From positions 137,922 through 201,921 of the IMG/VR virus record IMGVR_UViG_3300009431_000002: 64,000 nucleotides of DNA. The stretch is one strand, 5' to 3'. Below the pieces are notes generated by a model. That model saw nothing but the letters and a program-made list of their open reading frames with translations, searched no databases and had not been told where the DNA came from. The stretch comes from a virus (lineage: Duplodnaviria > Caudoviricetes). Numbering within the stretch: the first letter of the stretch is position 1; each line of letters opens with the position of its first letter. Shown here in pieces: positions 7,701 through 28,378 of the stretch. Made by a program: the position numbers and the translations under genes.

Positions 7701-10700
7701 TGGCCTTCTCGAACACCGGGTTCGGCATGGGCTCGGCCAGCCGGATGTGGGACCAGCGCTTGCCGTCCACACCGCCCGTGGCGTAGGGGTCGAACAGCCC
7801 GCCGCGCTCCGGCTTGAGGTCCTTGCCCCGGAACATCAGGCCCGGGTCCTTCAGTTCGCCGCTGGACATCCGCAGGATCTGCTCGTCGGTGAGGGGCGCG
7901 AGGTTCAGGGTCGAGCCCTGCTTCTTGACGTCGACGCCCAGCACGTTGAGGTAGCCGTTGAACTTGTCGAAGGCGAACGAGGTGGACGGCGGTGGGAGCT
8001 GCTCCCCAGTCTGCAGGGCCATCCACAGCTCGGGGTTCTTCTGGCTCTTGTAGGTGGCCATCTCCCGGATGTTGGCCTTCGCTCCATGAGCCAACATGGC
8101 GTACATGCCCAACGCGTCCATGGCCTGGGCGCCGTGGGCACCACCGCCCTTCGGAACCTCGTTGACGCTGTACGCGTACCCGGCCCCGCCCGCGCGGGCG
8201 TGGGACTTCTTGTCGATCTGGTGCTTGAGCTTGAGGATGTACTGGTCGCCCGTGAGGATCGGCCCCAGGCTCTGCCCGGACTTGGGGTCCACCAGCTCCT
8301 CGGTGTCGGACAGGCCCTCCTTCGCCAGCTCCGCCTTCATCTCCTTGGCGTAGTTGCGGTTGGCCCCGCCGAAGTTGTTGGTGACGTACCGCTTGCCCCG
8401 CTTCCGGGCGATCTTCCCGGCCATCGTCTCGAGGACCTGGCCGAGGTTGATGCGGCCGGGGATGCCAGCCGGGTTGAGCAGGACCTCGACCGGGGCGCCC
8501 TCTTCGCCAGAGGCGCGCGGCATCTCGTGGTCAGGCAGCACCGCCGTGACGATGCCCTTGTTGCCGTGGCGTCCGACCAGCTTGTCCCCGACGCGGGCAG
8601 GCTCCTCGGTGGCGACGTGGACGCTGACGTCCTTGCCCCGCTTGACGACGCGGACCACCCGGCCCTTCGTGTCCTTGTCCCAGACGATGGGCTTGGGGTC
8701 CATGTCCCGCACGAGGCTCTTGTGCAGCCGCGCCCGCATGCGACGCTCGCTGGTCTGCTCCGGCTTCTTCAGCGCGGCGACGAGGATGTCCCCCTCGTTG
8801 ACCTCCTGCCCCACCTGGATGACGCCGTCGTCGTCGAGCTTGTCGTAGACCTCGCGCTGCACGCGGTCGGGTGGCGCGTACGCGCGGAACTTCTTCTTGT
8901 CCAGGACCGTGTTCTTGGTCAGCCGCATGCTCTTGCGGTGCATGTGCTGGGACTTGAGCTTCTCGGCCGCGGACTCGGAGACGACGATGCCGTCCTCGAA
9001 GTTGTACCCACGGTACGGGATGTAGGCCACCCGGAGGTTCTTGCCCAGCGCGAGCTTGCCTTCGCGCGTGAAGTTGGTGTCGGCCACCGTCTGGCCGCGC
9101 TTGACCTTGTCCCCCTTCTTCACGAGGGGCTCGGAGTGCAGGACGCTGGACGCCTCGTTGAGCGGGAAGTGGTCGTAGAGCTGGACCTCCTCCAGCTTCC
9201 CGGCCTTGCTCCGGATCTTGATGGCGCCGGGCCTCACCGACACCACGGTGCCTTCCACCGGGGACTCGTGGGAGTTGAACTGGCCCAGCACGTCCTCGAA
9301 GGTGGACCTCACCTCGGTCTTGGACTGCACCAGCGGCTCGTCGCGGTCCACCAGGGGCACGGCCTGCTCCTGCTGCCGGGACGCCGTCATGGCCCTGTTG
9401 CCCTGGTTGTTCTGCAGGAAGGGCACGAGGTTGGTGGCCATGCTGAACAGGCCCTTGGCCGACGGGAGGATGTAGTCCACCTCGCTGGCCGGCACCTGCA
9501 TCACCTCGCCGCCCGGGCCGCTGACCGTCACCTCCTTACCGATGGGGACGAGCCGGTTCTTCACCTTCTTGTACTGGTCTGGGAAGGCGACGGTGGAGCG
9601 GTGCGCCTTGTGCGGATCGATCTTCTCCCGGCGGCCCGTCTTCGTGTTGTAGGCCTGGATGTAGAGGGTCTTGCCCTTCCGCGACACCCCCAGCGGGAGC
9701 TGGAGGGTGATGCCGGTGCGGTCACCCTCCGGGGTGTGGATGGGGTCGAGGAAGCCGAGGTGCGTCGGGTCGATGAGCTGGTCGGCGTCGGTCAGGGTGT
9801 GGGTGCTCTTGACCCCGCCCTCGCCCATGATGGTGGTCTTGGACTGGCCGGAGATGAACTCCAGCGGGTTGACCTGGTCGGGCATCTGCGACAGCTGGGT
9901 CTGGGTGAAGAAGGTCTTGATGGGCTTGTCGAACAGCCCGGGGGTCACGACCTCCCTGACGTCGGCCTTGCGGTCGATGTTGTTCTCCATCTTCCGCTGC
10001 AGATCCCAACGGCCGCGGGTCAGCCGCTCGGCCACGAAGTCGTCGACCGACAACGCGTCCTTGTAGAACAGGTGCTCACGCGCGTCCGGGGTGTCCTCGC
10101 CCCTCGAGATCCGCGCGAGCTTGTGGGCCGAGGCCAGGAGCGACGGGCCGCTCACCTTGTCGTAGGCCTTGCCCAGGGTGATCTTCGTGCTGTCGGGGCG
10201 CAGCACGGTCGTGCCGAACTCATCTCGGAGGTGGCGCTCGGCGTCCTCGATGCTGGGTGCCTGCTTGCCCGTCGACGCCTTGTAGAAGGCGCGCATGGCG
10301 ACGTCGTGCTTCTCCTTCTTCCCCTGGTTGAGGATCCCGCGGCCCAGCTCGCGCTCGATGGTGTCGTCGTCGACCCCCAGCACCTTGAGCATCGGGTAGA
10401 GCGGGATGTGGGAGTTGCCGTACCGGACCAGGAACCGCCGGTCCTCCGGGTGGAACCGGAGCCGGAAGTTCTTGCCTTTCGCCATGTTCCACTGGGACTC
10501 CAGCTCACCCTTGGCGCTGACGCGGTGGTACACCCCAGCCTTCAACCGGAACTGGTTGTCGACCTGGTACTCCTTGCCGTCGACGATGTAGGAGTGCCGC
10601 TTGGTCACGCGGGGCAGGTTGCCCACGCGCATGGACTTGCGGCTGATGACCTTGCCCGTCTCCTTGTTGACCAGGGAGACGTCGGCCATAACAGGGTCAG

Positions 10701-10890
10701 CCCAAGTCCTGCCCTTGAGCTTCGCGTCCTGCTGGGACCGGATGTCGTCGATGCCCTTCTTGTCGTCGACCCAGACCCGGTGGAGCTCCAGCCGGTTCTC
10801 TCGCCCCTCGAAGGGGAACATCGACGAGATGGCGTCGCTGACACGGTCTTTGAGGGCACCGTAGGAACCCTCTGGGTTCAGTGTCGCCAT
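4744..10890 (-). CDS. rpoBC: DNA-directed RNA polymerase, fused beta-beta' single polypeptide, 2048 aa
   Basis: Beta motifs QLSQ..DQ.NPL, TPEG, GYNFED, GDKLVGRHGNKG (8554-8589); beta' catalytic NADFDGD (6781-6801), bridge helix RKGMIQKTKETAKPG, trigger loop GEPATQLSMRAFH; junction VLGVDVKK-QG-STLNLAP near 7915-7926 with no stop. Confidence 0.97.
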   Translation of the reverse strand: MATLNPEGSYGALKDRVSDAISSMFPFEGRENRLELHRVWVDDKKGIDDIRSQQDAKLKGRTWADPVMADVSLVNKETGKVISRKSMRVGNLPRVTKRHSYIVDGKEYQVDNQFRLKAGVYHRVSAKGELESQWNMAKGKNFRLRFHPEDRRFLVRYGNSHIPLYPMLKVLGVDDDTIERELGRGILNQGKKEKHDVAMRAFYKASTGKQAPSIEDAERHLRDEFGTTVLRPDSTKITLGKAYDKVSGPSLLASAHKLARISRGEDTPDAREHLFYKDALSVDDFVAERLTRGRWDLQRKMENNIDRKADVREVVTPGLFDKPIKTFFTQTQLSQMPDQVNPLEFISGQSKTTIMGEGGVKSTHTLTDADQLIDPTHLGFLDPIHTPEGDRTGITLQLPLGVSRKGKTLYIQAYNTKTGRREKIDPHKAHRSTVAFPDQYKKVKNRLVPIGKEVTVSGPGGEVMQVPASEVDYILPSAKGLFSMATNLVPFLQNNQGNRAMTASRQQEQAVPLVDRDEPLVQSKTEVRSTFEDVLGQFNSHESPVEGTVVSVRPGAIKIRSKAGKLEEVQLYDHFPLNEASSVLHSEPLVKKGDKVKRGQTVADTNFTREGKLALGKNLRVAYIPYRGYNFEDGIVVSESAAEKLKSQHMHRKSMRLTKNTVLDKKKFRAYAPPDRVQREVYDKLDDDGVIQVGQEVNEGDILVAALKKPEQTSERRMRARLHKSLVRDMDPKPIVWDKDTKGRVVRVVKRGKDVSVHVATEEPARVGDKLVGRHGNKGIVTAVLPDHEMPRASGEEGAPVEVLLNPAGIPGRINLGQVLETMAGKIARKRGKRYVTNNFGGANRNYAKEMKAELAKEGLSDTEELVDPKSGQSLGPILTGDQYILKLKHQIDKKSHARAGGAGYAYSVNEVPKGGGAHGAQAMDALGMYAMLAHGAKANIREMATYKSQKNPELWMALQTGEQLPPPSTSFAFDKFNGYLNVLGVDVKKQGSTLNLAPLTDEQILRMSSGELKDPGLMFRGKDLKPERGGLFDPYATGGVDGKRWSHIRLAEPMPNPVFEKAILTFTGLKNKDYQAVIAGEKTLDGKTGPEAIRARLAAIDPRQQLETLRRQAETTKAVSTMAKLRKQIRFLEALVANDLTPDQAYFTSVVPVMPPVMRPVSVMESGKLNDSDINGLYKSLGITNIQLRDYDPGLGEKTKSKLTAELYDGLRALMMTGSTINGRKHRGVMETMKGVPQPKDSFFQKNLVSRRQDLSMRSTIIPEPDMGLDEVGIPYKLAKETYKPFVVRKLVREQGYVPAEAQHLVRTNSKVARHALERVMEERPVLLKRDPVLHKFGVMAFKPKLVGGKAIRIHPLVTSGYNADFDGDQMSAYVPLAKEAVEEARKLFPSNNLFNTTTGRVMYSPGHEAQLGLYRLTEWGKKTSHRFDSPAQVAAKARKLGLGMTDVVSVKGRETTLGRILLDRVLPEGMRGDAQLLHSKDFRMSKGPTKDLLTRMAKEHSADFGDVVNDLKDMGNDYAYESGASFTLDDFQAQQAVRDRALAGVHKAAKRIQKMKSLTQEEKDQRLVDLYSKATEDLSRAIRPKLERQGNHALEMVNAGARGNWDQVRQILIAPMLVKDAADRIVPVPITKSYAEGLDSASYFTAMHGARKGMIQKTKETAKPGALTKDVVNSAMNLVVVDGDAPDDADDGISADPEDREVIGRYLARPVKLRGGDVLPRNTEVTDRVQTRMKNSGVRRVSIRSPLKSVAPKGLYARDYGNLPDGQLPDPGTNIGVIASQALGEPATQLSMRAFHEGGVAASKSGRSTDKFTRVQDLLRMPKVLADSATLATTTGTVERVEKDAEVGGLNIWVKGKRHYVPEHLVNEKIKLRKGVKVRKGDRLSGGPINPHEMLPLTNINTVRGYLADEVHKAYSDAGPVLRRNVETAVRAITDLGVVDDAGDTDLLPGDLVSTSNVGYHNKKRKKPVKFTPILRGVTQTPLDMQEDWMARLQYQKLKDTIVDGALRGWSSNIHGLHPIPALAYGSEFGQPEKGTPGTTEFRVGY

Positions 10891-10911
10891 GGAACGTCCA
10901 GTTGTGCCATC

Positions 10912-10940
10912 AGGCTACAGTGCAAGGGATGCTGTGGCAA
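10912..10940 (-). promoter_or_regulatory. sigma70-type promoter TTGCCA-N17-TAGCCT for the RNAP/virion operon
   Basis: -35 at 10935-10940 (5/6 match), -10 at 10912-10917 with T-12, A-11, T-7 kept, 17-nt spacer, 21 nt before the rpoBC ATG. Confidence 0.6.
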
Positions 10941-10950
10941 CGGGTACAAG
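10919..10950 (+). promoter_or_regulatory. Putative phage-sigma promoter AGTGCAA-N17-GGTACAAG
   Basis: Same bipartite motif as 17269-17299; lies 29 nt upstream of the first gene of a plus-strand operon. Confidence 0.6.
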
Positions 10951-10979
10951 TAGAGTAACCAACAGAGGAGGTCTGCTGC

Positions 10980-11186
10980 ATGATTGAAATCGTACCCACC
11001 GAAGACCACACCCTCGACGATCTGGACGACGAGCCCATCGTGCTCGCCGGCCCGGGCGATGACGAGGATGACAACGATGACGAAGAGGAGGACAATGAGG
11101 AGGAGGTCGACGAGGACCGGGAGGACCGGACGAGTCCAGAGATCCTCGACGACGCCGTCGATGAGGCGATCTACGGCGAGGAGTAG
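10980..11186 (+). CDS. Small highly acidic protein, 68 aa
   Basis: SD GGAGG 8 nt upstream; Asp/Glu-rich; first gene after the putative phage promoter. Confidence 0.7.
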   Translation: MIEIVPTEDHTLDDLDDEPIVLAGPGDDEDDNDDEEEDNEEEVDEDREDRTSPEILDDAVDEAIYGEE

Positions 11187-11188
11187 CC

Positions 11189-11290
11189 ATGTTCTGGACG
11201 CTGGTGGGCGTCGGCCTGTTCCTGGGGCTGATGCTGTACATGAGACATTCGAGCGGGGACTTCGTGGCCTCGATGACCCGCTCGACCTGA
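11189..11290 (+). CDS. 33-aa single-pass membrane peptide (MFWTLVGVGLFLGLMLYMR...)
   Basis: Hand translation; SD GAGGAG; GC3-rich codons; hydrophobic N-terminal 17 residues. Confidence 0.55.
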   Translation: MFWTLVGVGLFLGLMLYMRHSSGDFVASMTRST

Positions 11291-11709
11291 CCGCCGACGA
11301 CGCGGCGCCCGACGCTACGTTCGCACTGGCGTACTGCACCCTGCTCGCCCACGACATCATCGCTGAGGCGTTGGACGGGGACCCCGAGGACTGGCCCGAC
11401 TACATCCAGCTGTGCTGCGACGAAGTGAACTGCGCCGAGTGCGCGCTCCTCGCCGGCTTCCTGGAGGGTTCCGAGTTCTCGTGGGTCTGCGCCACCTGCG
11501 CCACCGCCTTCCCACACCACATCGGCTTCTGGATCTCGGGGACCTGCGACGCCTGCGACGGCGTCGTCACAACAGGTACACGCCGCTCCCCCGTCGTCAC
11601 GACCGACGACGACCACGCCGAGTCCTGCGTCCTTCAACTGATCGAGGAGCAGCCGGTCCTCCGCGACCGGCTCCGCCGGATGCAAGCACTGGTGGAGCGG
11701 CATGCGTAG
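11287..11709 (+). CDS. Cys-rich hypothetical protein (start uncertain)
   Basis: Coding-like part of track ORF 10984-11709; CCDEVNCAEC, CATC, CDAC motifs; no ATG/GTG where the coding signal begins, only a CTG overlapping the upstream TGA. Confidence 0.55.
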   Translation: MTADDAAPDATFALAYCTLLAHDIIAEALDGDPEDWPDYIQLCCDEVNCAECALLAGFLEGSEFSWVCATCATAFPHHIGFWISGTCDACDGVVTTGTRRSPVVTTDDDHAESCVLQLIEEQPVLRDRLRRMQALVERHA

Positions 11710-12007
11710 GGCGCTACGATTCAGCGACCTCACGCGCCGCGCCAAGGAGGACCGAGAGGAGGCCCTCCGCCAGGACGACGCCGGCGAACCACGAGTCATC
11801 TGCGACTACTGCGACCAGCCAATCGTGCCCGGAGAGGTCGGCTTCGCCATCCAGCAATTCGAGGTGGTGGTGAGCAACAAGTCCGGGCGCGACGTCTACC
11901 AGGACATCCACATGGAGGACGGGTCCTCCGAGAAGTGCTACCACTTCACGTGTCTCGCCGAGCACATCACCCAGCCGTGCATCATCGGAGCCGAGCATGA
12001 AATGTGA
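11702..12007 (+). CDS. Zn-finger protein (C-x2-C...H-x2-C), 101 aa
   Basis: CDYCD...YHFTCL; paralog of next gene. Confidence 0.7.
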   Translation: MRRALRFSDLTRRAKEDREEALRQDDAGEPRVICDYCDQPIVPGEVGFAIQQFEVVVSNKSGRDVYQDIHMEDGSSEKCYHFTCLAEHITQPCIIGAEHEM

Positions 12008-12266
12008 CTGGTGCGACTGCGAGTTCGAGCCCGATGAGGAGGCCATGCTGGTCATCGAGGGGCAGATGACCCTCTCCCCCAAGTCCGAGCGCCTGGTGCT
12101 GGGCAAGGAGATGACCCCCAAGTACTTCCACAAGGCCTGCCTCTACGAGGTGGCCATGCACGCGATGGAGCTCGACGACGAGTACCTCGCCCAGGTCGGC
12201 GCCAACGTGCGCGAGATGCTGGAGGAGGAACTGCGCGAGAAGATCTACGACGAGCTGACTGCCTGA
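11997..12266 (+). CDS. Zn-finger protein (C-x2-C...H-x2-C), 89 aa
   Basis: CDWCD...FHKACL; paralog of previous gene; last gene before terminator. Confidence 0.7.
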   Translation: MKCDWCDCEFEPDEEAMLVIEGQMTLSPKSERLVLGKEMTPKYFHKACLYEVAMHAMELDDEYLAQVGANVREMLEEELREKIYDELTA

Positions 12267-12281
12267 CGACACAGTGTCGTC
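12265..12281. repeat. Dispersed palindrome copy 1 (GACGACAC-A-GTGTCGTC)
   Basis: Perfect 8-bp arms with 1-nt centre; core CGACACWGTGTCG at 12267-12279. Confidence 0.85.
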
Positions 12282-12287
12282 GACGCC

Positions 12288-12311
12288 GAGTGGGGGCCGC
12301 CCCACTCTTTT
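12288..12311 (+). terminator. Intrinsic terminator GAGTGGGG-GCCG-CCCCACTC-TTTT
   Basis: 8-bp perfect stem, 4-nt loop, T-tract, at a convergent junction. Confidence 0.8.
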
Positions 12312-12320
12312 AGATCGGGA

Positions 12321-14318
12321 TCAGACGACCGCCCGCTCGAGGGGCCGGCGCGGGGGCTTCTGCTCGGGGAGGGGCTGCTGAAGCGGATTCAGCGTGTCTC
12401 GCTGGCCTCCATCGCCCTCGCTCAGCAGGGCCTGGACCATGCGGTAGATGTCGGGGCTGCCCATCCGCAGCTTCTGCATGGCCTGCGGGAACATGGCCGG
12501 CTGCTCGTCCTGGATCCGGCGCATCTCCGTGGCGATGCGTCGCGCGACGAAGCGGACGTCGACCATCTCGTTGCCGCCGGTCATCTGCCCCATGTGCATG
12601 GGGGACTGGACCTCCTGCGGGAGGTTGTCGACGTACACGGCCGCGCCGTCCGGCACACCCGGACCGATCTGCTCGCCGCGCATGACCGATGGCTGGGTCT
12701 GCGGCAGCTCGGCGTAGGACGGCGGGGACTCCGGCGGCTGCTGCATCTGCATCTGCATGTGCTGGGCCTGGATCTCGTAGCGGAGGGCCGCCAGCTGGGC
12801 CTCCCCCTGCGCCGCGGCCTGGGCCACCACCATCTCGCGGTTGGCTGCCACCTGCTTGACCAGCTCCTGCTTCTTCCGCTTCTCCTCGGTCTCCAAGTCC
12901 TCGCCGAGCTCGCGGAGGAACGTGGTGTCGGAGATCTTCATGGCCTGGTTCGCCTGGAAGTAGACCATCAGCCTCTGCAGGTCGTCGGCCATCTTGAACC
13001 GCTCGAACCGGATGGGCACCCTCGGCCAGCCGAGGAACTCGCAGATGCGGCCCATGACGAAGTCGCCAACCAGCCGGAGTTGGTCGTCGCGGTACCCACT
13101 GAACTGGTTCTCGAGGATGCGCATCGACACGTTGGTGCCGGTGTACTGCATGCCACCGAAGATGAACTCGATGGGCACGTTCATGCCCGCGATGATCTGC
13201 TCGCTCCAGACCCGCAGCTCCTGGTGGAGGATGAGCGCCCGTCCCTGGCCGCCGATCATCTCGTGGCCGAGTGGGATGGGCATCAGCGGGATGTAGTTGG
13301 GGTCCTGGCGCCAGCGAGCGATCTCCTCCTGGACCTGGTCCTTCCACTCCCCGAGGTTGATCATCGTGATGGGGTCGCCGGTCTGCCCGTTGGCCTGCGG
13401 GTACAGCACGCGCAGCGGGACGATGTGCTCCTGGGCGATCATCTCCTGGCCCTTGCGCAGGACCTGCAGGTAGAAGATGTCCTTGAGCACGGGCAGGACC
13501 AGCGGCATGCCCCAGCCCTGGTCCTTCTGGGCGATGATGGGCCGCTTGAGGTGGAACAGCGTGCCCGGCGCGAACTTCACCGACTTCTTCTTCCGCATCG
13601 CCTCGATGAAGGTGTCGGGCACCGTCTCGATGACGTTGCGGCGGCCGATGGTGATGGCGTTCTTCAGCTTCTGCGGCAGCTTGTAGAAGTAGGTCGGGTC
13701 GGTGACGCCCTCGTTGTCGTCGATCTCCACCCGCTCCGGGTCCCACCGGACCAGCCGGATGCCCTTGGCCGTCCGCATGGCCTCGTCGTGGACCTCGGCC
13801 GGCCGGCGCTCCCCGCACTCGGGGCAGGTCAGGTAGTAGACCATCTCCTGGTAGCGGTAGTGCCTGCGGAGCTTGTCGATGGGCGCCTTGTGGCCGCAGT
13901 GACGGCACTTGAGGTGCTTGACGAAGGGGAAGTGCACCGTGACGAAGGCGTTGCCGTAGTTGTAGTAGTCCAGCCCCACCTCGATCTGGAACTTGCGGAC
14001 CTGGAGCTGGTCCTCGAAGAGGTGGCGGTACCGCTCTCGGACGTCCTTGTCGTCGGCCTCGTAGATGATCTTGGTGATGGGGTACTCGGCCAGCTTGTAC
14101 ACGACCGCGTTGATGAGCGGGTTCGTGAAGAAGAAGTACCGGCACCACTGCAGCATCTGCTTGAGGCGCGCGGGGAAGTACGTCTGGGCGGCGTCGAAGA
14201 ACGGGTTGGGGTACCGCACCCCGGTCCGCTGCATGCTCGAGCCGAGCGTGACGGGCGTGCGGGAGAAGCGGGTCAGCCCGTCACCGTAGGAGACGCCGGT
14301 GTACCCGAGGCCTGGCAT
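12321..14318 (-). CDS. Probable portal protein with Zn-ribbon insert, 665 aa
   Basis: Size, helical character and motifs reminiscent of portals (NPLINAVVYKLAEY, DYYNYGNAF, WGMPLVLPVL, IIAGMNVP); CRHC...CPEC insert; Gln/Pro-rich tail. Assignment is inference. Confidence 0.6.
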   Translation of the reverse strand: MPGLGYTGVSYGDGLTRFSRTPVTLGSSMQRTGVRYPNPFFDAAQTYFPARLKQMLQWCRYFFFTNPLINAVVYKLAEYPITKIIYEADDKDVRERYRHLFEDQLQVRKFQIEVGLDYYNYGNAFVTVHFPFVKHLKCRHCGHKAPIDKLRRHYRYQEMVYYLTCPECGERRPAEVHDEAMRTAKGIRLVRWDPERVEIDDNEGVTDPTYFYKLPQKLKNAITIGRRNVIETVPDTFIEAMRKKKSVKFAPGTLFHLKRPIIAQKDQGWGMPLVLPVLKDIFYLQVLRKGQEMIAQEHIVPLRVLYPQANGQTGDPITMINLGEWKDQVQEEIARWRQDPNYIPLMPIPLGHEMIGGQGRALILHQELRVWSEQIIAGMNVPIEFIFGGMQYTGTNVSMRILENQFSGYRDDQLRLVGDFVMGRICEFLGWPRVPIRFERFKMADDLQRLMVYFQANQAMKISDTTFLRELGEDLETEEKRKKQELVKQVAANREMVVAQAAAQGEAQLAALRYEIQAQHMQMQMQQPPESPPSYAELPQTQPSVMRGEQIGPGVPDGAAVYVDNLPQEVQSPMHMGQMTGGNEMVDVRFVARRIATEMRRIQDEQPAMFPQAMQKLRMGSPDIYRMVQALLSEGDGGQRDTLNPLQQPLPEQKPPRRPLERAVV

Positions 14319-15257
14319 CTACGCCCTCCTCTCGGCCGAAGGCGCGAAGAGCGTGGTGCTGGGCGTCGTCGCCCCCGAGGGCGTGGGCGGCGGCCGCAGG
14401 GACTGCTGCCTGCGCTTGTGGTAGCCCAGCAGCTTGTCGATGCCCTTGCCCAGCGTGCCCATCGACCTGGAGCCGACCTCCCAGCCCGCGATGGATCCCC
14501 CGAAGCCGGTGGGCATCCCCGCGACCATGCCGGCGTGACCGCCGAGGTGCTGCAGCGCTCGTTCTGCGTGGCCCCGCGGCTTCCCGCCACCGAAGGCGTG
14601 CGGGTCGTCGCGCTTGACGATGTGAGGGGAGAAGGCTCCGCCGAAGCCCGCCAGCATGGACTTGCCTCCCACCGGCGCGTACTTGGTCAGCTCGCCGGAC
14701 CCAGTCCAGCCGCGGCGCGACAGCTCCTCAGCCAGCTCACGAGGCCGGGTCGCCACGTCACGGAGCCGCTGCGACTCGTCGAAGAGGTGACTCGTCTCGG
14801 CGTGGGGCCGCACGGCCTTGGCTTGCTCCCCCATCGCGCGCCGAGTGCCCGAGCCGCCGGCCCACTCCGGTGCGTACCACCTGTAGGCGCCCTCGGCCTT
14901 CCGGGTCTCCTTCATACCCTCCTGCAGCGCCTTGTGCGCGGCGGGGTCACCCCTGACGGCCTGCATGATGTCCTCGGGCAGGCCCTTGGTCTTGGCGTAG
15001 CTGGCCCAGTCGTCGAACCCGGCCCGGCGGGCCTCGAGCATCAGCCGCTGCGTGGCCCCCTCCACCGGGCTGAGGTGCTCCCAGCCCCGACGAAGGATCT
15101 GTCCCGTGCGGCGCGGGTCGAAGGTCTTGGCGGCGGTGGCGGTGCCGTGCGCCGCGGAGGTGAGCTGGTTGAGGAGGAAGCGAAGCGGGTTGGCCTGCTT
15201 CTCCAGCTCGTCCTCGAACGCATCCAGTCGAGCTGGCGTCAGGGCGCGAGAAGCCAT
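14319..15257 (-). CDS. Putative internal virion protein with FEDELEKQA leader, 312 aa
   Basis: Start revised to ATG at 15257 (SD GGAG); no Cys; Gly/Ala-rich amphipathic segments near the C-terminus. Confidence 0.65.
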   Translation of the reverse strand: MASRALTPARLDAFEDELEKQANPLRFLLNQLTSAAHGTATAAKTFDPRRTGQILRRGWEHLSPVEGATQRLMLEARRAGFDDWASYAKTKGLPEDIMQAVRGDPAAHKALQEGMKETRKAEGAYRWYAPEWAGGSGTRRAMGEQAKAVRPHAETSHLFDESQRLRDVATRPRELAEELSRRGWTGSGELTKYAPVGGKSMLAGFGGAFSPHIVKRDDPHAFGGGKPRGHAERALQHLGGHAGMVAGMPTGFGGSIAGWEVGSRSMGTLGKGIDKLLGYHKRRQQSLRPPPTPSGATTPSTTLFAPSAERRA

Positions 15258-16126
15258 GGCCGCATCATCTCCATCTGTTGGGCCAGCTGGCGCCGGCGCA
15301 GCTTCATGTACTCCCGCGCCCGCAACACTCTGGCCACGCATCGATCCACCTGGGTCTCCCCCAGATCTACTTGGTCCAGGCCCTTACCGGCAACTGATTC
15401 GTACCGCTCCTTGACCGGCCGGTAGTCGTTGATGAAGTAGCGCTCGACCTTCCCGTGCCCCAGCTTCTTCGCCGGCGAGTCCGCCGTGGGCTTGCCATCG
15501 AGGTTGTGCTCACCTCGGAAGCGCTTGGCGCAGACGTCACACGTGTCGTCCTCGAGGTCGTCCTCGTCCTCGTTGCCGCAGCTGGTACACCTGTACATCG
15601 GCCGCGCGGCCAGCCGCTGTGCGAAGTCCAACGGCGGCGGGAGGAACCACACGCCGTCCGACAGCGCGGCCGCGGCGACGAACCGGGCCACCTCGTCCGA
15701 GAACTTCCGGCCGTCCACACTCTCCATCATGTCCACGCCGGCCGCCAGCGCGTCGAAGGAGGGCTGCTGGATGATGTCGAACCTCGGGATGTTGTTGTTC
15801 AGCGCCTGGATGGTGGGGACGAAGGCGTCCCAGCTGATCCAGCAGGCGTCCGTGGCGTGCAGCGTCTTCACCGCCATGATCTTGTTGCGGTTCAGCTCGC
15901 TGATCTCCAGCTGTCCACCGCCGAGCAGAGCCTGCCCGAAGTACCGCTTGATGCCGTCCCACACAGCCTCCGGCACCCACTCCCACCAGTCCTTCCCGAA
16001 GGCGGTGACGATGACGGCGTCGAGGACCAAGGGGTGTGCGTCGTGGTGGCGAAAGAGCGTGGCTGGCCGAATGTCGTCCGGCTGGGTGGTCAAAGCGGTG
16101 GCCGGGGACGCATCAGCCATGCGCAA
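15239..16126 (-). CDS. Hypothetical protein with Zn ribbon (CTSC...CDVC), 295 aa
   Basis: GC3-rich ORF overlapping both neighbours in the portal operon. Confidence 0.65.
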   Translation of the reverse strand: MRMADASPATALTTQPDDIRPATLFRHHDAHPLVLDAVIVTAFGKDWWEWVPEAVWDGIKRYFGQALLGGGQLEISELNRNKIMAVKTLHATDACWISWDAFVPTIQALNNNIPRFDIIQQPSFDALAAGVDMMESVDGRKFSDEVARFVAAAALSDGVWFLPPPLDFAQRLAARPMYRCTSCGNEDEDDLEDDTCDVCAKRFRGEHNLDGKPTADSPAKKLGHGKVERYFINDYRPVKERYESVAGKGLDQVDLGETQVDRCVARVLRAREYMKLRRRQLAQQMEMMRPWLLAP

Positions 16127-17207
16127 TCGTCTGCATGCCGACAGGGCTGTGGCCCGTGTCCGAGGCCAGCCGGGCGAGCGTGACCTTGTTGATGTCGGGC
16201 AGCGACTTGAACACGGAGACGGGGTCCTTGGCGAACTGCGTGGCGAAGTCGTCGCCGAAGTGGTCCTTGAGCAGCTGCCGATTGGCAGACAGGAGCCGCA
16301 GGTCGGCCTCGGTCACGCGCTCGGCGCCCTCCACCCACACGAAGTCCTCGGCGGTCTTCTCGAAGCAGGTGGAGACGGGGTCCAGCACGTGCTGGTCCCA
16401 GAGGTGGTCGAGGCCCGTCTGCTCGTCGAACAGCGTCAGGGCCGTGGCGAGCTTCTCGGGGTTGGCGCGTTCGTCGCCGGCGGACTTCACGAGGACGTCG
16501 AGCACCGGGTGCATGCTGGCCGGCACGTACTGGCGCCGCGCCTCGATGTACATACCGGCGTCGGGAGCGAGCGCGGTGCCGGCGTACTTCTCGATGTCGT
16601 GCGATGGCACGGGGATCCCCAGGTCGGCGGCGCGGGACGCCAGCTTCGTGGCGAACTCGCGGCGGTCGTTGGGATGGAAGCGCAGCATGTTCTCCCGGAA
16701 GAAGCCCATGCCGGCGGCGACCTCCTCGTAGGAGCGCAGCGGGTACTTGCCGAGGGCCACGCAGTCCGCTTCGGCCAGCTTCTCCTGCTCCATCACCGGC
16801 GCAGTGGCCAGCACGGAGTCCACGACCTCGGCCGTCTTCACGCCATCGGCGGTGAGGGCCAGCCCGATCTTCACCAGATCCAGCGGGACCTGCATCTGGT
16901 GGGCCTCGTGGGCGTCGATCAGGTTGTTCACGACCTGCAGCTGGGCCTCCTTGGACAGGTGGCCCCGCTGGGACAGGAAGTAATGGGCGGACATCCATGT
17001 ATTGCCGGGGTCGATGGTGGCATACTTGCAGAACAGGTTGCCGTCGACGGACGCGACGAGCGCGAAGTTCTTGGCCGGCAGAGCCTGACGCTCCTCGGGA
17101 GACAGGAAGGCTGCCGTCTTGGCCATGTCGGGGAGTTGGTCCTGGGGGACGGTACTGGCGAGCAGCGCCGCCTGGTCGTCATAGACGTCGAGGATCAATC
17201 CAGACAT
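16113..17207 (-). CDS. Probable head-assembly protein, K-x-A dense, 364 aa
   Basis: SD AGGAG; first gene of portal operon; 10 of 17 Lys are followed by x-Ala. Confidence 0.65.
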   Translation of the reverse strand: MSGLILDVYDDQAALLASTVPQDQLPDMAKTAAFLSPEERQALPAKNFALVASVDGNLFCKYATIDPGNTWMSAHYFLSQRGHLSKEAQLQVVNNLIDAHEAHQMQVPLDLVKIGLALTADGVKTAEVVDSVLATAPVMEQEKLAEADCVALGKYPLRSYEEVAAGMGFFRENMLRFHPNDRREFATKLASRAADLGIPVPSHDIEKYAGTALAPDAGMYIEARRQYVPASMHPVLDVLVKSAGDERANPEKLATALTLFDEQTGLDHLWDQHVLDPVSTCFEKTAEDFVWVEGAERVTEADLRLLSANRQLLKDHFGDDFATQFAKDPVSVFKSLPDINKVTLARLASDTGHSPVGMQTIAHG

Positions 17208-17239
17208 GGAGACTCCTGTGAATGAGGCGGTCCAGTGGA

Positions 17240-17269
17240 ATCGTAGGCCCCTGCGCGCACGCGAGTCAA
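17240..17269 (-). promoter_or_regulatory. sigma70-type promoter TTGACT-N18-TACGAT for the portal operon
   Basis: -35 at 17264-17269 (5/6), -10 at 17240-17245 (4/6), 32 nt upstream of ATG 17207. Confidence 0.7.
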
Positions 17270-17299
17270 GTGCAACGTCTCCCGGGAAGCCGGCATAAG
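17269..17299 (+). promoter_or_regulatory. Putative phage-sigma promoter AGTGCAA-N16-GGCATAAG
   Basis: Same motif as 10919-10950; heads the 17-kb replication operon; no credible sigma70 promoter seen on this strand. Confidence 0.62.
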
Positions 17300-17304
17300 A
17301 AAAG

Positions 17305-17318
17305 CAGATTGTAATCTG
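17305..17318. promoter_or_regulatory. Operator-like inverted repeat CAGATT-GT-AATCTG
   Basis: Perfect 6-bp AT-rich arms just downstream of the putative promoter. Confidence 0.45.
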
Positions 17319-17346: not shown

Positions 17347-17724
17347 GTGACCCGAGCAGCCGCGAGAGCGATTCGTTACTCAGACCTTGCGCCGTCACCG
17401 ACGACGTACCCCCGCAACCGCCCGCCGTGTTTCGGCAAGCAGTACGACCCAGCCGACGCCGAGTGCCGGCACCAGTGCTCCCACAAGAGCGCCTGTGCCC
17501 CGATCTTCCGCCAGACCCACGGGGTCCGCGTCCCCGCAACCACCACCAGCTCCGCCGTGGCGGACCGAGAGCAGACCGAGCTCCCGGAGTACACGGAGGT
17601 CGCTGCCCCCGACGAGAGCTTCTGGGCGAAGCTCGCCTTCAACTCCGCCCTGCAGGCTGTGGAGTCCGTGGTCCACGAGATGCACTACGCCATCCGCTCC
17701 GTCCCGAGGAAGGAGTACTTCTGA
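17347..17724 (+). CDS. Cys4 Zn-finger protein (PPCFGKQY...C..QC.....C)
   Basis: SD GAGGAGG 9 nt before GTG 17347 (alternative ATG 17338); four spaced Cys. Confidence 0.7.
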   Translation: MTRAAARAIRYSDLAPSPTTYPRNRPPCFGKQYDPADAECRHQCSHKSACAPIFRQTHGVRVPATTTSSAVADREQTELPEYTEVAAPDESFWAKLAFNSALQAVESVVHEMHYAIRSVPRKEYF

Positions 17725-18122
17725 TGGCCATGCTCAGCGTGGGCCAGACGTTCAAGCGATACCGCGAGCGCGCCAGGTTCAGCAGCTGTGCCGCCGTGGC
17801 TGGCCCCATGGGCATCTCGGGTGAGTACATCCGGCAGATCGAGAAGAAGGGGAAGATCCCCAGCGACAAGGTCGTGAACAGCTTCATCGAGGTCTGCCGG
17901 ATGCCGACCGAGGCTGCCGACGCCCTGCGGAAGGCGGTCGTCGCCGCCCGCCTCAAGCGCACACACGGCCGCAACCTCACCCATTTCAAGGGTGCGGACC
18001 AGGTGGCCTCCGGCGTCTGCGACGACCTCCGGGAACTGCTCGACAAGATGGGGCTCATCGAAGAGGATGTGGACGCCATCCTCGAGACCGCTCGTCAGGG
18101 GATCGTATCGAGGCTCCGGTGA
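17724..18122 (+). CDS. XRE-family helix-turn-helix regulator, 132 aa
   Basis: GQTFKRYRERARFS..AVAGPMGISGEYIRQIEKKGKIPS fits the HTH_3 pattern; TGATG coupling to upstream gene. Confidence 0.75.
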   Translation: MAMLSVGQTFKRYRERARFSSCAAVAGPMGISGEYIRQIEKKGKIPSDKVVNSFIEVCRMPTEAADALRKAVVAARLKRTHGRNLTHFKGADQVASGVCDDLRELLDKMGLIEEDVDAILETARQGIVSRLR

Positions 18123-19504
18123 TCCAGTTCCACAGGCTCGACCGAGACAAAGCGTACCGGGAATCCATGCTCTGGGTGCCCAAGTACCTCGTGCCCGTGG
18201 AGACCCTGGAGGCCTCGCTGACCTACTGGTTCACCGAGACCGACGACGAGGGCAACTCCTTCGTCGCCAAGCTGGAGTGCTGGGCGGAAGAGGCTCGGCA
18301 CTTCGTGCTGCCGCGGGAGTTCCCGCAGGAAGAGGTCCCCTGCGAGGTCGTCGACCTCTCTCCACGCACCGAGCGCGTCACGTTCAACGACGACATCGCT
18401 CCCCGCGACGACGTACAGGTCGAGGCCATGGCGGCGATGCGCGGAGCCCAGACAGGCATCCTCAACCTCGGCTGCGGCCGGGGCAAGACCGTCGTCGCTC
18501 TGGAGCGCATCGCCCGCGGCGGCGGACCCGGGCTCGTCGTGGTCAACAACACCGGCATCCAGGCGCAGTGGCGCAAGGAGGCACGCGCCCGGCTCCGACT
18601 CCCGGCGGCCGACATCGGCATGGTCGGCGGGGACAGCCCCAAACGCAACGAGCTGCTCGAGTGGATGAAGCCGCTGGTCCTCGTGACCGTCCAGACCCTG
18701 TGGCGTCGCATCGTCGAGGGCCGCGTCCCTGAGACCGTCCGTCGGCGGTTCACGACGGTGGCGTTCGACGAGGCCCACCACATGAGCGCGCCGAAGTTCA
18801 ACATCGCCAGCGGCTTCTTCACCGGCGACCGCTTCGGCCTGACGGCCACGGCTCAGCGCACCGACGGCAACGAGAGGTTCTACCTCTACCACCTGGGGCA
18901 GGTCCTCTACCGGAACATGGAGGTGGACGTACCGCCCATCTGCTACTTCGCCCACACGGGCATCGCGCCGACCGTCGCAGAGCGGAACAGGTTCTTCGTC
19001 AACGACATGGTGAACATCGGCCGCGTCCGTGAGTGGCAGGCCAAGAACGCGCGACGCAACACCATGATCGCCAGGCTGGCGAAAGACGCGGTGGGCGGCG
19101 GCAACAAGGTGATCGCCCTCACCCACAACAAGAAGGATCACATCCCGCGGCTGAAGAAGAAGCTGCCGGAGTCTGGGGAGGTGACCGGGAACGTCAAGGG
19201 CGAGGCGCGACTGGTGAATCTGCACGGGAACGACGTGGTCGTCGGGACGGTGCAGGCTGCACAGGAGGCGCTGGACAAGCCGGAGCTGAACGTCGGCATC
19301 TGGTGCACCACCTTCCCCAACGAGAACGAGTTTCAGCAGGGGACCGGCCGTCTGGCTCGCCAGTACCCCGGGAAGGACGTGGCCAAGGCCATCTTCCTGG
19401 TGGACGACGTCCCCATCTGCCACGACCACGCCCGCAAGCTGGAGCGATACGCCCGCAAGCGGGGATACCGAACCGAACACTTCAAGCTGGAGGACATCGC
19501 ATGA
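18119..19504 (+). CDS. Superfamily 2 DNA helicase (UvsW/XPB-like), 461 aa
   Basis: Walker A LGCGRGKT, DEAH box, motif III GLTAT, motif VI QGTGRLAR. Confidence 0.9.
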   Translation: MIQFHRLDRDKAYRESMLWVPKYLVPVETLEASLTYWFTETDDEGNSFVAKLECWAEEARHFVLPREFPQEEVPCEVVDLSPRTERVTFNDDIAPRDDVQVEAMAAMRGAQTGILNLGCGRGKTVVALERIARGGGPGLVVVNNTGIQAQWRKEARARLRLPAADIGMVGGDSPKRNELLEWMKPLVLVTVQTLWRRIVEGRVPETVRRRFTTVAFDEAHHMSAPKFNIASGFFTGDRFGLTATAQRTDGNERFYLYHLGQVLYRNMEVDVPPICYFAHTGIAPTVAERNRFFVNDMVNIGRVREWQAKNARRNTMIARLAKDAVGGGNKVIALTHNKKDHIPRLKKKLPESGEVTGNVKGEARLVNLHGNDVVVGTVQAAQEALDKPELNVGIWCTTFPNENEFQQGTGRLARQYPGKDVAKAIFLVDDVPICHDHARKLERYARKRGYRTEHFKLEDIA

Positions 19505-19992
19505 ACAAACCCGTCAAGATCCACACCGCCGGCCCCAATGAGAAGCAGGCCGAGTTCCGCAGGGAGCTGGAGGAGCTCTACGAGAAGGCCGAGGGCGACC
19601 ACCTCATCCTCATGTACGCCCACCCGACCGCCGCCTACATGGGCCGCCGTACGAACTCCGTGACCGACACGGTCGTCAAGCTCGAGAACGTCTGCTCCGT
19701 GCTCACGGCTCGCGTCCCGCAGGGCGGCGCCCTCGTCGGGACGGGCAAGCCGCAGATGGGCCGGGCGCTGGTGATCGAGCCCCCCGCCGGCGGCGAGCTG
19801 GGCATGGTCGAGAAGATGACGTTCCCCACGAGCATGCCCATCGCCGAGCTCCAGAACCTGTCTCCTCGGGACCAGCACCGGCTGCTGGAGAGCTACCTCG
19901 ACCTCATCGTGGGGTCCGAGCGGAACCGCGAGACCGCCCTCGGCCCCGACCCCGAGGAGGACGACGGTGAGCCGAGTCCTGTCGAAGCGTGA
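19501..19992 (+). CDS. Hypothetical protein, 163 aa
   Basis: ATGA overlap with helicase stop; GC3-rich. Confidence 0.7.
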   Translation: MNKPVKIHTAGPNEKQAEFRRELEELYEKAEGDHLILMYAHPTAAYMGRRTNSVTDTVVKLENVCSVLTARVPQGGALVGTGKPQMGRALVIEPPAGGELGMVEKMTFPTSMPIAELQNLSPRDQHRLLESYLDLIVGSERNRETALGPDPEEDDGEPSPVEA

Positions 19993-20821
19993 GCTGCTGA
20001 CCCGCGACAAGTGGGCCCGCGCCCAGATGGACGCGCTGGAGGAGGAGTACGCGGAGTGCGCGCGCTGCCCCACCATGGTCGACACCGGATGGTGGACGCG
20101 CGGCCACATCGTCTTCGGCGAGGGTGCGGCCAACGCGGACATCTCGGTCTTCGGCATCGCCCCCGGCGAGCAGGAGGACGAGACCGGGCTCCCCTTCATC
20201 GGCCCCACCGGCCAGTTGCTCGACGACCTGCTCCTGCGGGCCTGTCCCTACAAGGAGCTGGACCCCTACCGTGTCGAGCGCAACCTGAACAGAGGGGAGT
20301 GGCGCGAGGTGCGCCAGATCCTCGTGGAGAAGGAGCGGCTCTTCTACTCCAACGTCACCCTCTGTCGTCCGGTCAAGCAAGAATACAACGACCGGAAGGA
20401 CGTGATGGAGCTGCGCAACCGTGACCCGTCCAAGGTGGAGTACGACAACTGCGCCGAGCGGCTGCGCGAGACCTTGTACATCAACGACCCCTTCCTCGTG
20501 ATCGCCCTCGGAGGTGTCGCGCTCACCGCGCTGATGGCACTGGACGAACGCGTGGCCCGCTCCAAGAAGTTCAGCGTCCTCGACCTGCTGGGCGAGGTCC
20601 TCGAGCTCCAGATCCCAGGGGTCATCCGGCCCGTCCGCTACCCGCTCCTGGTGCTTCCGCACCCAGCCTTCCTGCTGCGCAAGTGGGATCCCAGAGAGCG
20701 CCGAGGCTTCGTCCAACGCACCCAGCAGGGCCTCAAGCGAGGTCTTCGCATCGTCGACACCGCAAGACACGAAACGATGGGGACGGCTGTCCCCGAACGC
20801 ACAGAGAAGAAACGGAGGTGA
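19967..20821 (+). CDS. udg: Uracil-DNA glycosylase family 4-like (Fe-S), 284 aa
   Basis: CARC...LCRP...NCAE Cys ligands, G(I)APGEQEDETGLPFIG motif A, HPAFLLR motif B. Confidence 0.88.
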   Translation: MSRVLSKRELLTRDKWARAQMDALEEEYAECARCPTMVDTGWWTRGHIVFGEGAANADISVFGIAPGEQEDETGLPFIGPTGQLLDDLLLRACPYKELDPYRVERNLNRGEWREVRQILVEKERLFYSNVTLCRPVKQEYNDRKDVMELRNRDPSKVEYDNCAERLRETLYINDPFLVIALGGVALTALMALDERVARSKKFSVLDLLGEVLELQIPGVIRPVRYPLLVLPHPAFLLRKWDPRERRGFVQRTQQGLKRGLRIVDTARHETMGTAVPERTEKKRR

Positions 20822-20823
20822 AT

Positions 20824-21279
20824 ATGAGCGAGGTCGGAGCTCAGCTCATGGAGGCGGCGCACCGCGCCATCGAGAAGTTCGAGGAGGCGGACCGCCTGTA
20901 CACGGATACCCTGGCGGAGCTGGAGGAGGAGGACCCCGAGGGGTTCCAGGAGCTCTACCGCTGCCTCGAGGAGCGCAACACCGCGGTCACGGTCGCCCGC
21001 GCGGCCGTCCGCAAGGCCAAGACCAAGGTCGGCAAGTTCCGCGTCGTCGTCAACCGCGGCGTCGAGTTCGACGTTGACGCCTTCATCGAGATGGCCAAGA
21101 AGCTGGGCATCTACGAGGAGCTGGTCGACGCCGGCGCCGTCAAGACCACCATCAACCAGACCACGCTCAAGAAGAACGTCACGGAGGACCAGCTGCAGCG
21201 CCTCAAGGAGGGCTGCGGCAAGGTCATCGAGAAGAGCGTCTCCGTGTACGGACCCAAGGAGCTGGGGACGCTGAAGTGA
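20824..21279 (+). CDS. Hypothetical protein, 151 aa
   Basis: SD GGAGG then ATG 20824; GC3-rich. Confidence 0.7.
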   Translation: MSEVGAQLMEAAHRAIEKFEEADRLYTDTLAELEEEDPEGFQELYRCLEERNTAVTVARAAVRKAKTKVGKFRVVVNRGVEFDVDAFIEMAKKLGIYEELVDAGAVKTTINQTTLKKNVTEDQLQRLKEGCGKVIEKSVSVYGPKELGTLK

Positions 21280-21674
21280 CGGGCAGCCACATCGTCCGGC
21301 GCCGGCTGGAGTTCTCGATGGAGCGCTACGCAGTGCTCCACTCAGACGCCGCGCCGGTGCGGGACGTGTGGGAGGGCCCCGAACTTCCGTTCCCGGAGGA
21401 GATCCTGGACATGATCGACAACCTCGTGACGACCGAGAACCCCGGGCGGATGACGCTCGGGTCCAACCTGGACTTCAAGGAGTTCGGCTCCGGCTTCGGC
21501 GCCCACGTCTCCCTGTCCTTCGACATCGACCAGACCACCGAGGCCGCCGAGACGGCGCGCGAGCGGGTCGGCGAGTTCCTCGTCGGGCTCGTCGCCGAGC
21601 AGACCGTGGAGGCCCAGCACATGTGGGAGGACCTGAAGTCCGGAGCCCAGGCAACGCTGAAGGCCAGCACGTAG
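21276..21674 (+). CDS. Hypothetical protein, 132 aa
   Basis: GTGA overlap; GC3-rich. Confidence 0.7.
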   Translation: MTGSHIVRRRLEFSMERYAVLHSDAAPVRDVWEGPELPFPEEILDMIDNLVTTENPGRMTLGSNLDFKEFGSGFGAHVSLSFDIDQTTEAAETARERVGEFLVGLVAEQTVEAQHMWEDLKSGAQATLKAST

Positions 21675-21698
21675 CGGTGACTGCACCGCGGAGGCGCC

Positions 21699-25262: not shown

Positions 25263-25271
25263 CCACTACGG

Positions 25272-25299
25272 GCCCGCCCCCGCACGCGCGGGGGCGGGC
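25272..25299 (+). other. 12-bp all-GC intergenic hairpin without T-tract
   Basis: GCCCGCCCCCGC-ACGC-GCGGGGGCGGGC between the SSB-like stop and the polA start. Confidence 0.75.
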
Positions 25300-25310
25300 G
25301 TGGAGCCTCA

Positions 25311-27284: not shown

Positions 27285-27577
27285 GAGTCACGTGCAGCGA
27301 GTGCGGCACCGAGTTCACGGCGAAGCTCGCCCCCTGTCCGGACGGCAGGGAGAACTGCGCTGTCGCCCACTACAACAAGGAGAGTTGGGACTGCCCCAAC
27401 TGCGACCACAACATGGGCCGGGAGGTGGCCACGGCCATCAAGGAGGGCCGGGTCACCGAGGAGCCCGGCATCGGCATCGGCAACATCGCCGCGGTGCGGA
27501 AGCTCGAGATCTACCGGGGAGACAACCGTGCACCGGACGGCATGACCTTCCCGAAGGTCGAGGACTACGAGCCGTGA
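27281..27577 (+). CDS. Zn-ribbon protein, 98 aa
   Basis: CSEC...CPNC plus two extra Cys; ATGA overlap. Confidence 0.7.
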   Translation: MRVTCSECGTEFTAKLAPCPDGRENCAVAHYNKESWDCPNCDHNMGREVATAIKEGRVTEEPGIGIGNIAAVRKLEIYRGDNRAPDGMTFPKVEDYEP

Positions 27578-28110: not shown

Positions 28111-28378
28111 GCTGCTGGACCTCGTGCACCGCCGCGTTCGCCGGCGCGTGCGCCTCAACCCCCTGCTGACTCGCGCCGTCGTCGAGGCGTTCCTGGACGT
28201 CGTCGCCGAGACCATCAACTCCGGCGAGCCCGTGAAGCTCCGTGGCTTCGGCCGGTTCGACATCATCCTCGCGCCGAAGAAGGCGGTCTACGACTTCAAG
28301 AAGAAGGAGATGACCAGCATCCCGCCGAGGCACAAGGTCGTGTTCAAGCCCTCGTCGACGAGGTTCACCCTTGACTGA
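28097..28378 (+). CDS. hup: HU/IHF-family DNA-binding protein, 93 aa
   Basis: MTKSELL..., GEPVKLRGFGRF, IPPRHKVVFKPS. Confidence 0.9.
   Translation: MTKSELLDLVHRRVRRRVRLNPLLTRAVVEAFLDVVAETINSGEPVKLRGFGRFDIILAPKKAVYDFKKKEMTSIPPRHKVVFKPSSTRFTLD

Follow-up and report, generated by a model that had tools for sequence, protein, structure and literature searches.

Virion-delivered phage RNA polymerases are made late in infection, packed in the particle and used early on phage-specific promoters. Phage σ factors that take over the host core enzyme are the established norm, with T4 gp55 and SPO1 gp28 as examples. In phage Arash, the RNA polymerase β and β′ subunits and the σ factor gp10 are among the most abundant virion proteins by mass spectrometry, and the paper that reports them describes no promoter, the word promoter being absent from it (PMC10585845). 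Group 1 jumbo phages have no σ (PMC7824862). Here we analyse a stretch of 64,000 nt (hereinafter the window), which is the final 64 kb of virus record IMGVR_UViG_3300009431_000002, a single-contig record of 201,921 bp with 67% GC that CheckV rates as complete. The window encodes a fused β-β′ RNA polymerase and a σ factor, and two of its divergent intergenic regions carry a bipartite motif, GCAA followed after 16–17 nt by the octamer GGYAYAAG. Positions refer to the window unless they are given as genome positions.

We consider it likely that the motif defines a class of about 24 promoters that depends on the phage σ factor and has the phage polymerase as its presumed partner, which explains the data best overall. 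The component of this reading that concerns the DNA, namely that the motif is a real promoter class, is highly probable.

The motif class in the window and the genome

The sequence contains both copies of the motif reported in an initial annotation, namely AGTGCAA at 10919–10925 with a 17-nt spacer and GGTACAAG (site 1), and AGTGCAA at 17269–17275 with a 16-nt spacer and GGCATAAG (site 2), both on the plus strand. Also as reported there, both copies lie in divergent intergenic regions (10891–10979 and 17208–17346), with 29 nt to the ATG at 10980 and 47 nt to the GTG at 17347. The elements of the two sites, together with one further candidate, are as follows.

10922..10925, plus strand: GCAA, −35-like element of site 1 by sequence, the conserved core of AGTGCAA
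10943..10950, plus strand: GGTACAAG, −10 octamer of site 1, 17 nt past GCAA; weight-matrix score 24.1
10956..10957, plus strand: T-A, predicted start of site 1 from the pyrimidine-purine register, with +1 = A 10957
17272..17275, plus strand: GCAA, −35-like element of site 2 by sequence; the orthologue in the closest relative, L005, has GAAA there
17292..17299, plus strand: GGCATAAG, −10 octamer of site 2, 16 nt past GCAA; weight-matrix score 24.7
17305..17306, plus strand: C-A, predicted start of site 2 in the same register as at the other sites, with +1 = A 17306
32324..32351, plus strand: GCAA, 16 nt, GCTACAAG, possible third copy; weight-matrix score 21.3

The third copy is kept as possible only, because it lies inside an open reading frame (ORF; 31797–32552).

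The initial annotation counted only two copies, which holds for the exact string and fails for the motif. Specifically, the exact bipartite pattern has two matches, whether the window or the full genome is scanned, and 100 shuffles gave none; this is a weak test because the pattern was composed after the data were seen. The motif itself has about 24 copies in the 202-kb genome. The class is thus genome-wide rather than a heading of just these two operons. GGYAYAAG occurs 25 times in the genome, with 23 copies on the plus strand and 2 on the minus strand (binomial p = 2e-5). Using a two-block weight matrix iterated on this genome's own sites, a bipartite scan of the whole genome returned 23 sites scoring at least 18, 22 of which are on the plus strand, compared with about 1 in shuffled sequence. 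Gene layout was taken from the ORF list and a third-position GC frame plot, which yields crude gene calls; by these calls the genome is about 85% coding, and 19 of the 24 best plus-strand sites are located outside genes.

The consensus of the 24 sites is G[C/A]AA, 14–17 nt (mode 16), GGNAYAAG, 5 nt and a pyrimidine-purine pair. In the −35-like element, the four positions are G in 23/24, C or A in 23/24, A in 22/24 and A in 22/24 sites. AGTGCAA was therefore over-specified as the upstream consensus, since AGT is not conserved across the sites and its A at site 2 is part of a minus-strand TTGACT hexamer. Five positions of the octamer are the same in every site, namely the first and last G and all three A; the second G occurs in 22/24 sites. 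The five positions after the octamer are weakly G-rich, and a pyrimidine-purine pair follows at +6/+7 past the octamer in 23/24 sites. We take this pair as the predicted start site, which falls within the 4–8 nt past the motif that had been anticipated. A ribosome-binding site of GGAGG type and a start codon lie about 25–33 nt downstream of the octamer at most sites. There is little information content outside the blocks, and the sites are therefore not pieces of a longer repeated element.

Counted from the predicted +1, the octamer reads G−14, G−13, Y−12, A−11, Y−10, A−9, A−8, G−7. In this predicted register the box would be laid out like TATAAT, keeping A at its customary −11 and replacing T by G at −7, while the G at −14 would correspond to that of an extended −10 element. 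The layout of σ70-family promoters is found here, namely two conserved blocks and a variable spacer limited to 14–17 nt across the 24 sites. The invariant A and the pyrimidine-purine pair would also fit the σ70 register, with A at −11 and the predicted +1 about 7 nt past the −10 hexamer. The bipartite geometry, the G at the predicted −7 and the GCAA at −35 support the initial annotation in describing a promoter unlike the σA/σ70 type of the host.

Site 1 is particularly constrained. Its divergent gap is 89 nt long, and only 28 nt separate the ATG of the polymerase gene from the motif, so that a plus-strand promoter in this gap can only be the motif itself. Because there is no room for another plus-strand promoter and a terminator closes the downstream unit, we read site 1 as a promoter. 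The predicted leader is 23 nt long and contains the ribosome-binding site GAGGAGG at 10965–10971. The orthologous site in L005 is TGCAAGG.

At site 2, the gap was compared with that of L005, whose polymerase is 67% identical. Conservation falls on exactly four hexamer or octamer elements, namely G-AAC and GGCATAAGA on the plus strand, and TTGACT and TACGAT on the minus strand. The octamer of site 2 is identical in the orthologous region.

A palindrome, AGATTGTAATCT, spans 17306–17317 on the plus strand, with its first base at the predicted start of site 2, and L005 retains the TGTAA core. Given that an HTH_31 (Xre-type) protein is the product of the operon's second gene, the palindrome may be an operator. 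Separately, TTAGC is found just 5′ of the −35 GCAA in a subset of plus-strand sites (genome positions 10890, 62692, 70075 and 72234), and also at sites 21105 and 21846 of the relative G002 (50% GC; tttagctGCAAAtt). This short block may be an upstream element or the site of a regulator.

Conservation in related phages

A strand-specific octamer of the G[G/T]TATAAG type, as proposed for an Arash-like class, is found in this genome (23 vs 2), in Arash (180,819 bp, 53% GC; GGTATAAG, 30 copies on the non-structural strand vs 1 on the other) and in Vibrio phage D69 (45% GC; GTTATAAG, 18 vs 1 by strand). In the Arash controls, the reversed pattern occurs 2 and 3 times and shuffles give 1–9. The whole-genome ranking of 8-mers in D69 is swamped by coding bias, and the count was restricted to intergenic regions. 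The Arash copies are followed by a 5-nt gap, a pyrimidine-purine pair, and then a ribosome-binding site and ATG; D69 has the same downstream register. No enrichment of exact GGTATAAG was seen in D69, where GTTATAAG takes its place, or in the distant relatives G006, G007 and G008.

Metagenomic relatives with 42–67% polymerase identity and 35–67% GC carry GCAAA or GAAAA, a spacer of 16–17 nt and GGTATAAG. Next to the polymerase gene, in the divergent position, an octamer is present in 11 of the 15 loci whose polymerase identity is 42% or more and in 5 of 26 loci below that, the chance expectation being about 10%. The strands also match those of Arash: all 12 minus-strand homologues compared (capsid, portal, terminase, polymerase, σ and others) lie on its structural strand, and all three plus-strand homologues lie on its motif-bearing strand. 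The signal is thus kept across phages of enterobacteria and vibrios and across varied GC content, the known constant being the phage σ and polymerase, which points to a phage factor rather than a host σ. Arash and the Vibrio phages D69, D148 and D181 have orthologous σ (about 30% identity) and polymerase.

A further block is present in D69, where ATATTTTA lies about 26–28 nt 5′ of the octamer at several GTTATAAG sites (for example 148047, 140513, 124755 and 31076). It sits beyond the −35 distance and could be a UP-like element or a factor site.

The candidate reader and rival explanations

Two genes of the window are candidates for reading the motif.

63276..63965, minus strand: σ factor, 229 aa (Pfam Sigma70_r3, PHROG 351)
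4744..10890, minus strand: fused β-β′ RNA polymerase, 2048 aa (Pfam Rpb2_6, Rpb1_2, Rpb1_5)

The 229-residue protein is the product of the sole σ gene of the genome and the sole genome match for Sigma70_r2 and Sigma70_r3; two other Sigma70_r4 matches are faint and sub-threshold. It matches Pfam Sigma70_r3 with 39.8 bits (cut-off 25.3) and PHROG 351, has a weak region 2 match and a C-terminal helix-turn-helix, and finds RpoS and SigA structures in the PDB with E = 4e-8. Regions 2, 3 and 4 are present and region 1, including region 1.2, is absent. The −10-reading helix is STFVHHYMRS, compared with STYATWWIRQ in RpoS. With Arash gp10 the protein forms a reciprocal best pair (32% and 30% identity). 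Among the σ factors of three phages, region 2 is conserved, with 18 invariant residues of 55, in contrast to region 4 with 4 of 65, a pattern that matches, at the level of sequence, the conserved −10 and the divergent −35 of the motif. A σ homologue is present in all three sufficiently complete genomes checked (this phage, Arash and G001). With σ alone as query, no locus was found in the viral contig collection; a polymerase query did find loci.

Against the curated families RpoD, SigB/F/G and FliA/WhiG, the protein scores about 40 bits in every case, with cut-offs of 190–385, and is placed in none of them; 'group 3' is a description of its domain layout, not a tested membership. The resemblance to group 3, SigB or σ28 elements seen in the initial annotation could not be turned into an assignment, as all NCBIfam matches are far under cut-off, and the −10 box aligns better with a TATAAT having G at −7 than with GGGTAT or GCCGATAA. 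The same annotation had proposed that the fused polymerase and the phage σ read the motif. The phage σ as best candidate reader gains support from a signal conserved across hosts, in phages with the same polymerase lineage, and from the σ homologues in the three genomes checked. We consider it quite probable, from these sequence comparisons, that the specificity of the motif comes from the phage σ.

Three known promoter types were considered and do not fit. A housekeeping group 1 promoter has T at −7 and a TTGACA-like −35; the motif has G at the predicted −7 in 24/24 sites and GCAA at −35. For a σ28 (FliA/WhiG) promoter, the box differs from GCCGATAA, and TIGR02479 gives 38.6 bits vs a cut-off of 189.6. 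For a SigB/SigF/SigG promoter, with GTTT at −35 and GGGTAT/GGGWAW at −10, GTTT is missing and the box extends to AAG, and TIGR02980 gives 40.9 bits vs a cut-off of 234.

The polymerase gene is single copy and encodes the sole RNA polymerase of the genome, which we propose as the core enzyme. It is 32% and 24% identical to Arash gp206 and gp216, respectively. Complex prediction gave a score of 0.52 for σ with polymerase residues 1000–1450, the best of three controls being 0.00, which supports the pairing weakly. Runs agree in at least 32% of contacts, with partner pLDDT of at least 62. In the benchmark, 0.52 is reached by 51 of 78 solved complexes and by 2 of 108 mismatches; passes at or below 0.60 include only 5 of the 78 solved complexes, yet all 4 mismatches that passed (of 180). 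Because σ bound to β′ is a solved textbook complex, this pass may reflect likeness only.

The mechanism we propose is as follows. Both window motifs would be members of one genome-wide, plus-strand class built like σ70-family promoters. Their specificity would most likely derive from the 229-residue phage σ, with its regions 2-3-4 and without region 1.2. This σ would direct the single-chain β-β′ polymerase, which presumably arrives, as in Arash, with the virion, to the non-structural genes; the targets in the window would be the replication operon and the unit of four ORFs. Genes for structural proteins, polymerase and σ are found on the opposite strand and would be transcribed, wherever a promoter is recognisable, from host-type TTGACN/TAnnnT promoters. 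We put the chances at about even that the phage polymerase is the core, arrives with the virion and acts early. The partnership is suggested by co-inheritance and the Arash virion data, and the early timing by gene content and analogy with Arash.

Several observations weigh against this mechanism. Genomes whose polymerase is more distantly related (G006, for instance, at about 32% identity) lack the exact octamer, and a head copy is recognisable in 6 of 10 plus-strand blocks with at least three genes (crude calls), not in every one. The weight-matrix scores are partly circular because the matrix was trained on this genome; independent evidence comes from the bias between strands and from the counts in other genomes. 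The register, with A at −11 and G at −7, depends on the predicted start site. No σ gene was found in G002, a record that is only 71% complete. Turning to the enzyme, a PF01000 search of the genome found no RNA polymerase α subunit, so that the fused β-β′ polymerase must assemble without α or borrow that of the host. The head-targeting tag F-x-D-E-L-x-K-I-A/G is absent from the N-termini of both σ and polymerase. The partner of the σ may instead be the host core.

The last three points lead to the rival that survives best, in which the promoter class and the phage σ are right and the σ redirects the host core, the β-β′ enzyme serving another promoter class or phase. Besides the absence of α and of the packaging tag, it draws on the norm set by phage σ factors such as those of T4 and SPO1, on a comparative review that predicts, for group 2 jumbo phages, a σ that appropriates the host core (PMC7824862), and on the weak complex prediction, which cannot tell which core binds. 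On the other side, the same σ lineage accompanies the same polymerase lineage in the three genomes checked (this phage, Arash and G001), both proteins are abundant in the Arash virion (PMC10585845), and the motif is conserved directly beside the polymerase gene. Moreover, the hosts are diverse (Salmonella, Vibrio and those of genomes with 35–67% GC), so that the σ would have to fit very different cores. We consider this rival unlikely.

That a host holoenzyme reads the motif without any phage factor, be it the housekeeping enzyme or one with an alternative σ of SigB/F or σ28 type, is very improbable. The box does agree with TATAAT at 5 of 6 positions and bears a loose likeness to TAAA-N15-GCCGATAA and GGGTAT promoters. 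T at −7, however, ranks among the two best-conserved positions in housekeeping promoters, and the G at the predicted −7 is invariant in the 24 sites here; in Arash and D69 this G belongs to the search string and gives no independent count. The genome separately has distinct promoters of the form TTGACN, 17–18 nt, TAnnnT. Retention of the motif by enterobacterial and vibrio phages, and by relatives with 35–67% GC, would also be unlikely for a host-specific alternative σ.

Least probable of all is that the motif is a regulator-binding site or a signal in the RNA, such as a processing site or translation leader. The HTH_31 protein of the site-2 operon and the palindrome AGATTGTAATCT just 3′ of site 2 lend something to this reading. 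Against it, the two blocks lack dyad symmetry and the spacer between them is flexible, the gap at site 1 (89 nt) leaves no space for a separate upstream promoter, and the spacing to the pyrimidine-purine pair and ribosome-binding site is fixed. No Rfam match was found, and the predicted leaders and the motif region fold no better than shuffled sequence.

Gene layout, host-type promoters and known systems

The genes and promoters around the two sites are as follows, with the second promoter class listed last.

Up to 10890, minus strand: gene block that terminates with the fused β-β′ polymerase gene
10980..12266, plus strand: site-1 transcription unit of about four small ORFs, from the ORF list and third-position GC
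12288..12311, plus strand: terminator-like GC hairpin and T run at the end of the site-1 unit (8-pair stem, 6 GC pairs, then TTTT)
12321–17207, minus strand: gene block with the portal gene at its end
12321–14318, minus strand: portal, 665 aa, 30% identical to Arash gp204 over 444 residues (E = 3e-79)
17347..34020, plus strand: site-2 operon, the replication module by Pfam matches and gene layout
34248 to window end, minus strand: structural genes
17240..17269, minus strand: TTGACT, 18 nt, TACGAT, heading the portal-ended operon (generic scan and L005 alignment)
10912..10940, minus strand: candidate TTGCCA, 17 nt, TAGCCT, before the polymerase gene, from sequence, a weaker match than at site 2
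Genome positions 13864, 15108, 26747, 44703, 57931 and 87565, minus strand, and about 15180, plus strand: TTGACN/TAnnnT copies

The ORFs of the site-1 unit have no Pfam or PHROG family match. The site-2 operon encodes, by Pfam, the HTH_31 protein, an SF2 helicase, a uracil-DNA glycosylase (UDG), DnaB, a DnaG-type primase, a family A DNA polymerase and RecA. PHROG portal matches of the protein encoded at 12321–14318 are weak only. In Arash the portal and polymerase genes are adjacent; here the small site-1 operon lies between them on the opposite strand. By megablast against GenBank phages, the region 10000–18000 has no close DNA relatives.

The second promoter class, TTGACN, 17–18 nt and TAnnnT, occurs 16 times on the minus strand of the whole genome vs about 4 expected. 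These promoters head most tRNA blocks and, in the window, the portal operon; 23 of the 29 tRNA genes are on the minus strand. Several have a start codon 5–6 nt past the −10 box, and their transcripts are therefore predicted to be leaderless. The remaining minus-strand structural operons have no strong shared motif by k-mer enrichment upstream of minus-strand genes.

The TTGACT/TACGAT promoter of the portal-ended operon was recovered independently by a generic scan. Its −35 hexamer directly adjoins the site-2 GCAA, and both of its hexamers are conserved in L005. Before the polymerase gene, GTGGCAAC, whose reverse complement contains TTGCCA, is conserved in L005. At both sites, a plus-strand phage-type and a minus-strand host-type promoter thus interleave within about 40–60 nt. 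Two polymerases could hardly occupy such promoters together, and the arrangement, as read from the sequence, may act as a switch.

Among known systems, phages of the Arash and D69 group share with this phage the separation of structural and non-structural strands, the strand-specific −10 box and the downstream register. Packaging of polymerase and σ has been shown for Arash only, the present phage being uncultured. Arash differs in having a split polymerase and a second σ:

OQ632216.1 (L102) 120656–121693: second Arash σ, gp196, 345 aa, outside the paper's list of virion proteins

A tblastn search found no homologue of gp196 in this phage, and late genes are probably switched on differently in the two. 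The signals differ also. The Arash −35 is a weak A-rich patch, not GCAA, and D69 has T for G at −13.

Tentatively, and with somewhat less than even confidence, the comparison may be extended to a lineage-wide, self-contained injected system, found in phages of Salmonella and Vibrio and in this GC-rich marine phage. An α-less bacterial-type polymerase and a minimal σ without region 1.2 would read a TATAAG code, with G at −7 where all housekeeping σ factors take T, that has stayed fixed across host changes. Interleaved host-type promoters, and possibly mutual exclusion of the two polymerases, would complete it.

Phage polymerases of bacterial type with a σ of their own have barely been studied, and no described promoter was found for them; nor did we find this consensus described in open-access full text, subscription journals being outside that coverage. 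The analysis supplies a defined consensus with an unusual G at −7, present in about 24 natural copies here and 30 in the cultured phage Arash. Arash makes the system directly testable, since its polymerase and σ are already known in the particle. The consensus opens the questions of how a σ without region 1.2 reads a −10 element, whether an α-less single-chain polymerase can work alone, and how such phages divide the genome between their own and host transcription. For annotators, it is a marker of operon starts in a widespread metagenomic lineage.

Compared with σ70-family promoters in general, the motif is alike in its two elements 14–17 nt apart, the invariant A equivalent to −11, the G at −14, the predicted start purine about 7 nt past the box, and a candidate reader with σ regions 2, 3 and 4. 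It differs in the invariant G for T at −7, in GG at −14/−13 instead of TG-n, and in G[C/A]AA instead of TTGACA at −35. The phage σ itself differs from readers of that family by the absence of regions 1.1 and 1.2 and by altered residues in the −10-reading helix. Group 3 promoters (TAAA-N15-GCCGATAA and GTTT-N14–17-GGGTAT) likewise have an A-rich −35 and a G-rich start of the −10, and group 3 σ factors have about 230 residues, with region 3 present and region 1 absent. Neither of their boxes matches, however, as the motif has ATAAG with a final G vs CGATAA or GGGTAT, and the phage σ scores no better against FliA/WhiG or SigB/F/G than against RpoD.

With T4 gp55 and SPO1 gp28 and gp34, the likeness is that a phage-encoded protein of the σ family sets a phage-specific promoter class. 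T4 and SPO1 presumably have no polymerase of their own, and we take their promoter sequences to be unrelated to the motif described here. The N4 virion polymerase and the multisubunit virion polymerases of phiKZ and AR9 follow the same logic that we propose here, being made late, packaged, and used on phage-specific promoters at the start of infection. Those enzymes work without a σ70-family factor and on unrelated signals, whereas here a bacterial-type enzyme would be paired with a classical σ promoter layout. The nearest functional analogues of the motif are thus the promoter classes of phage σ factors, as in T4 and SPO1, and the promoters of virion-delivered polymerases, as in N4, phiKZ and AR9.

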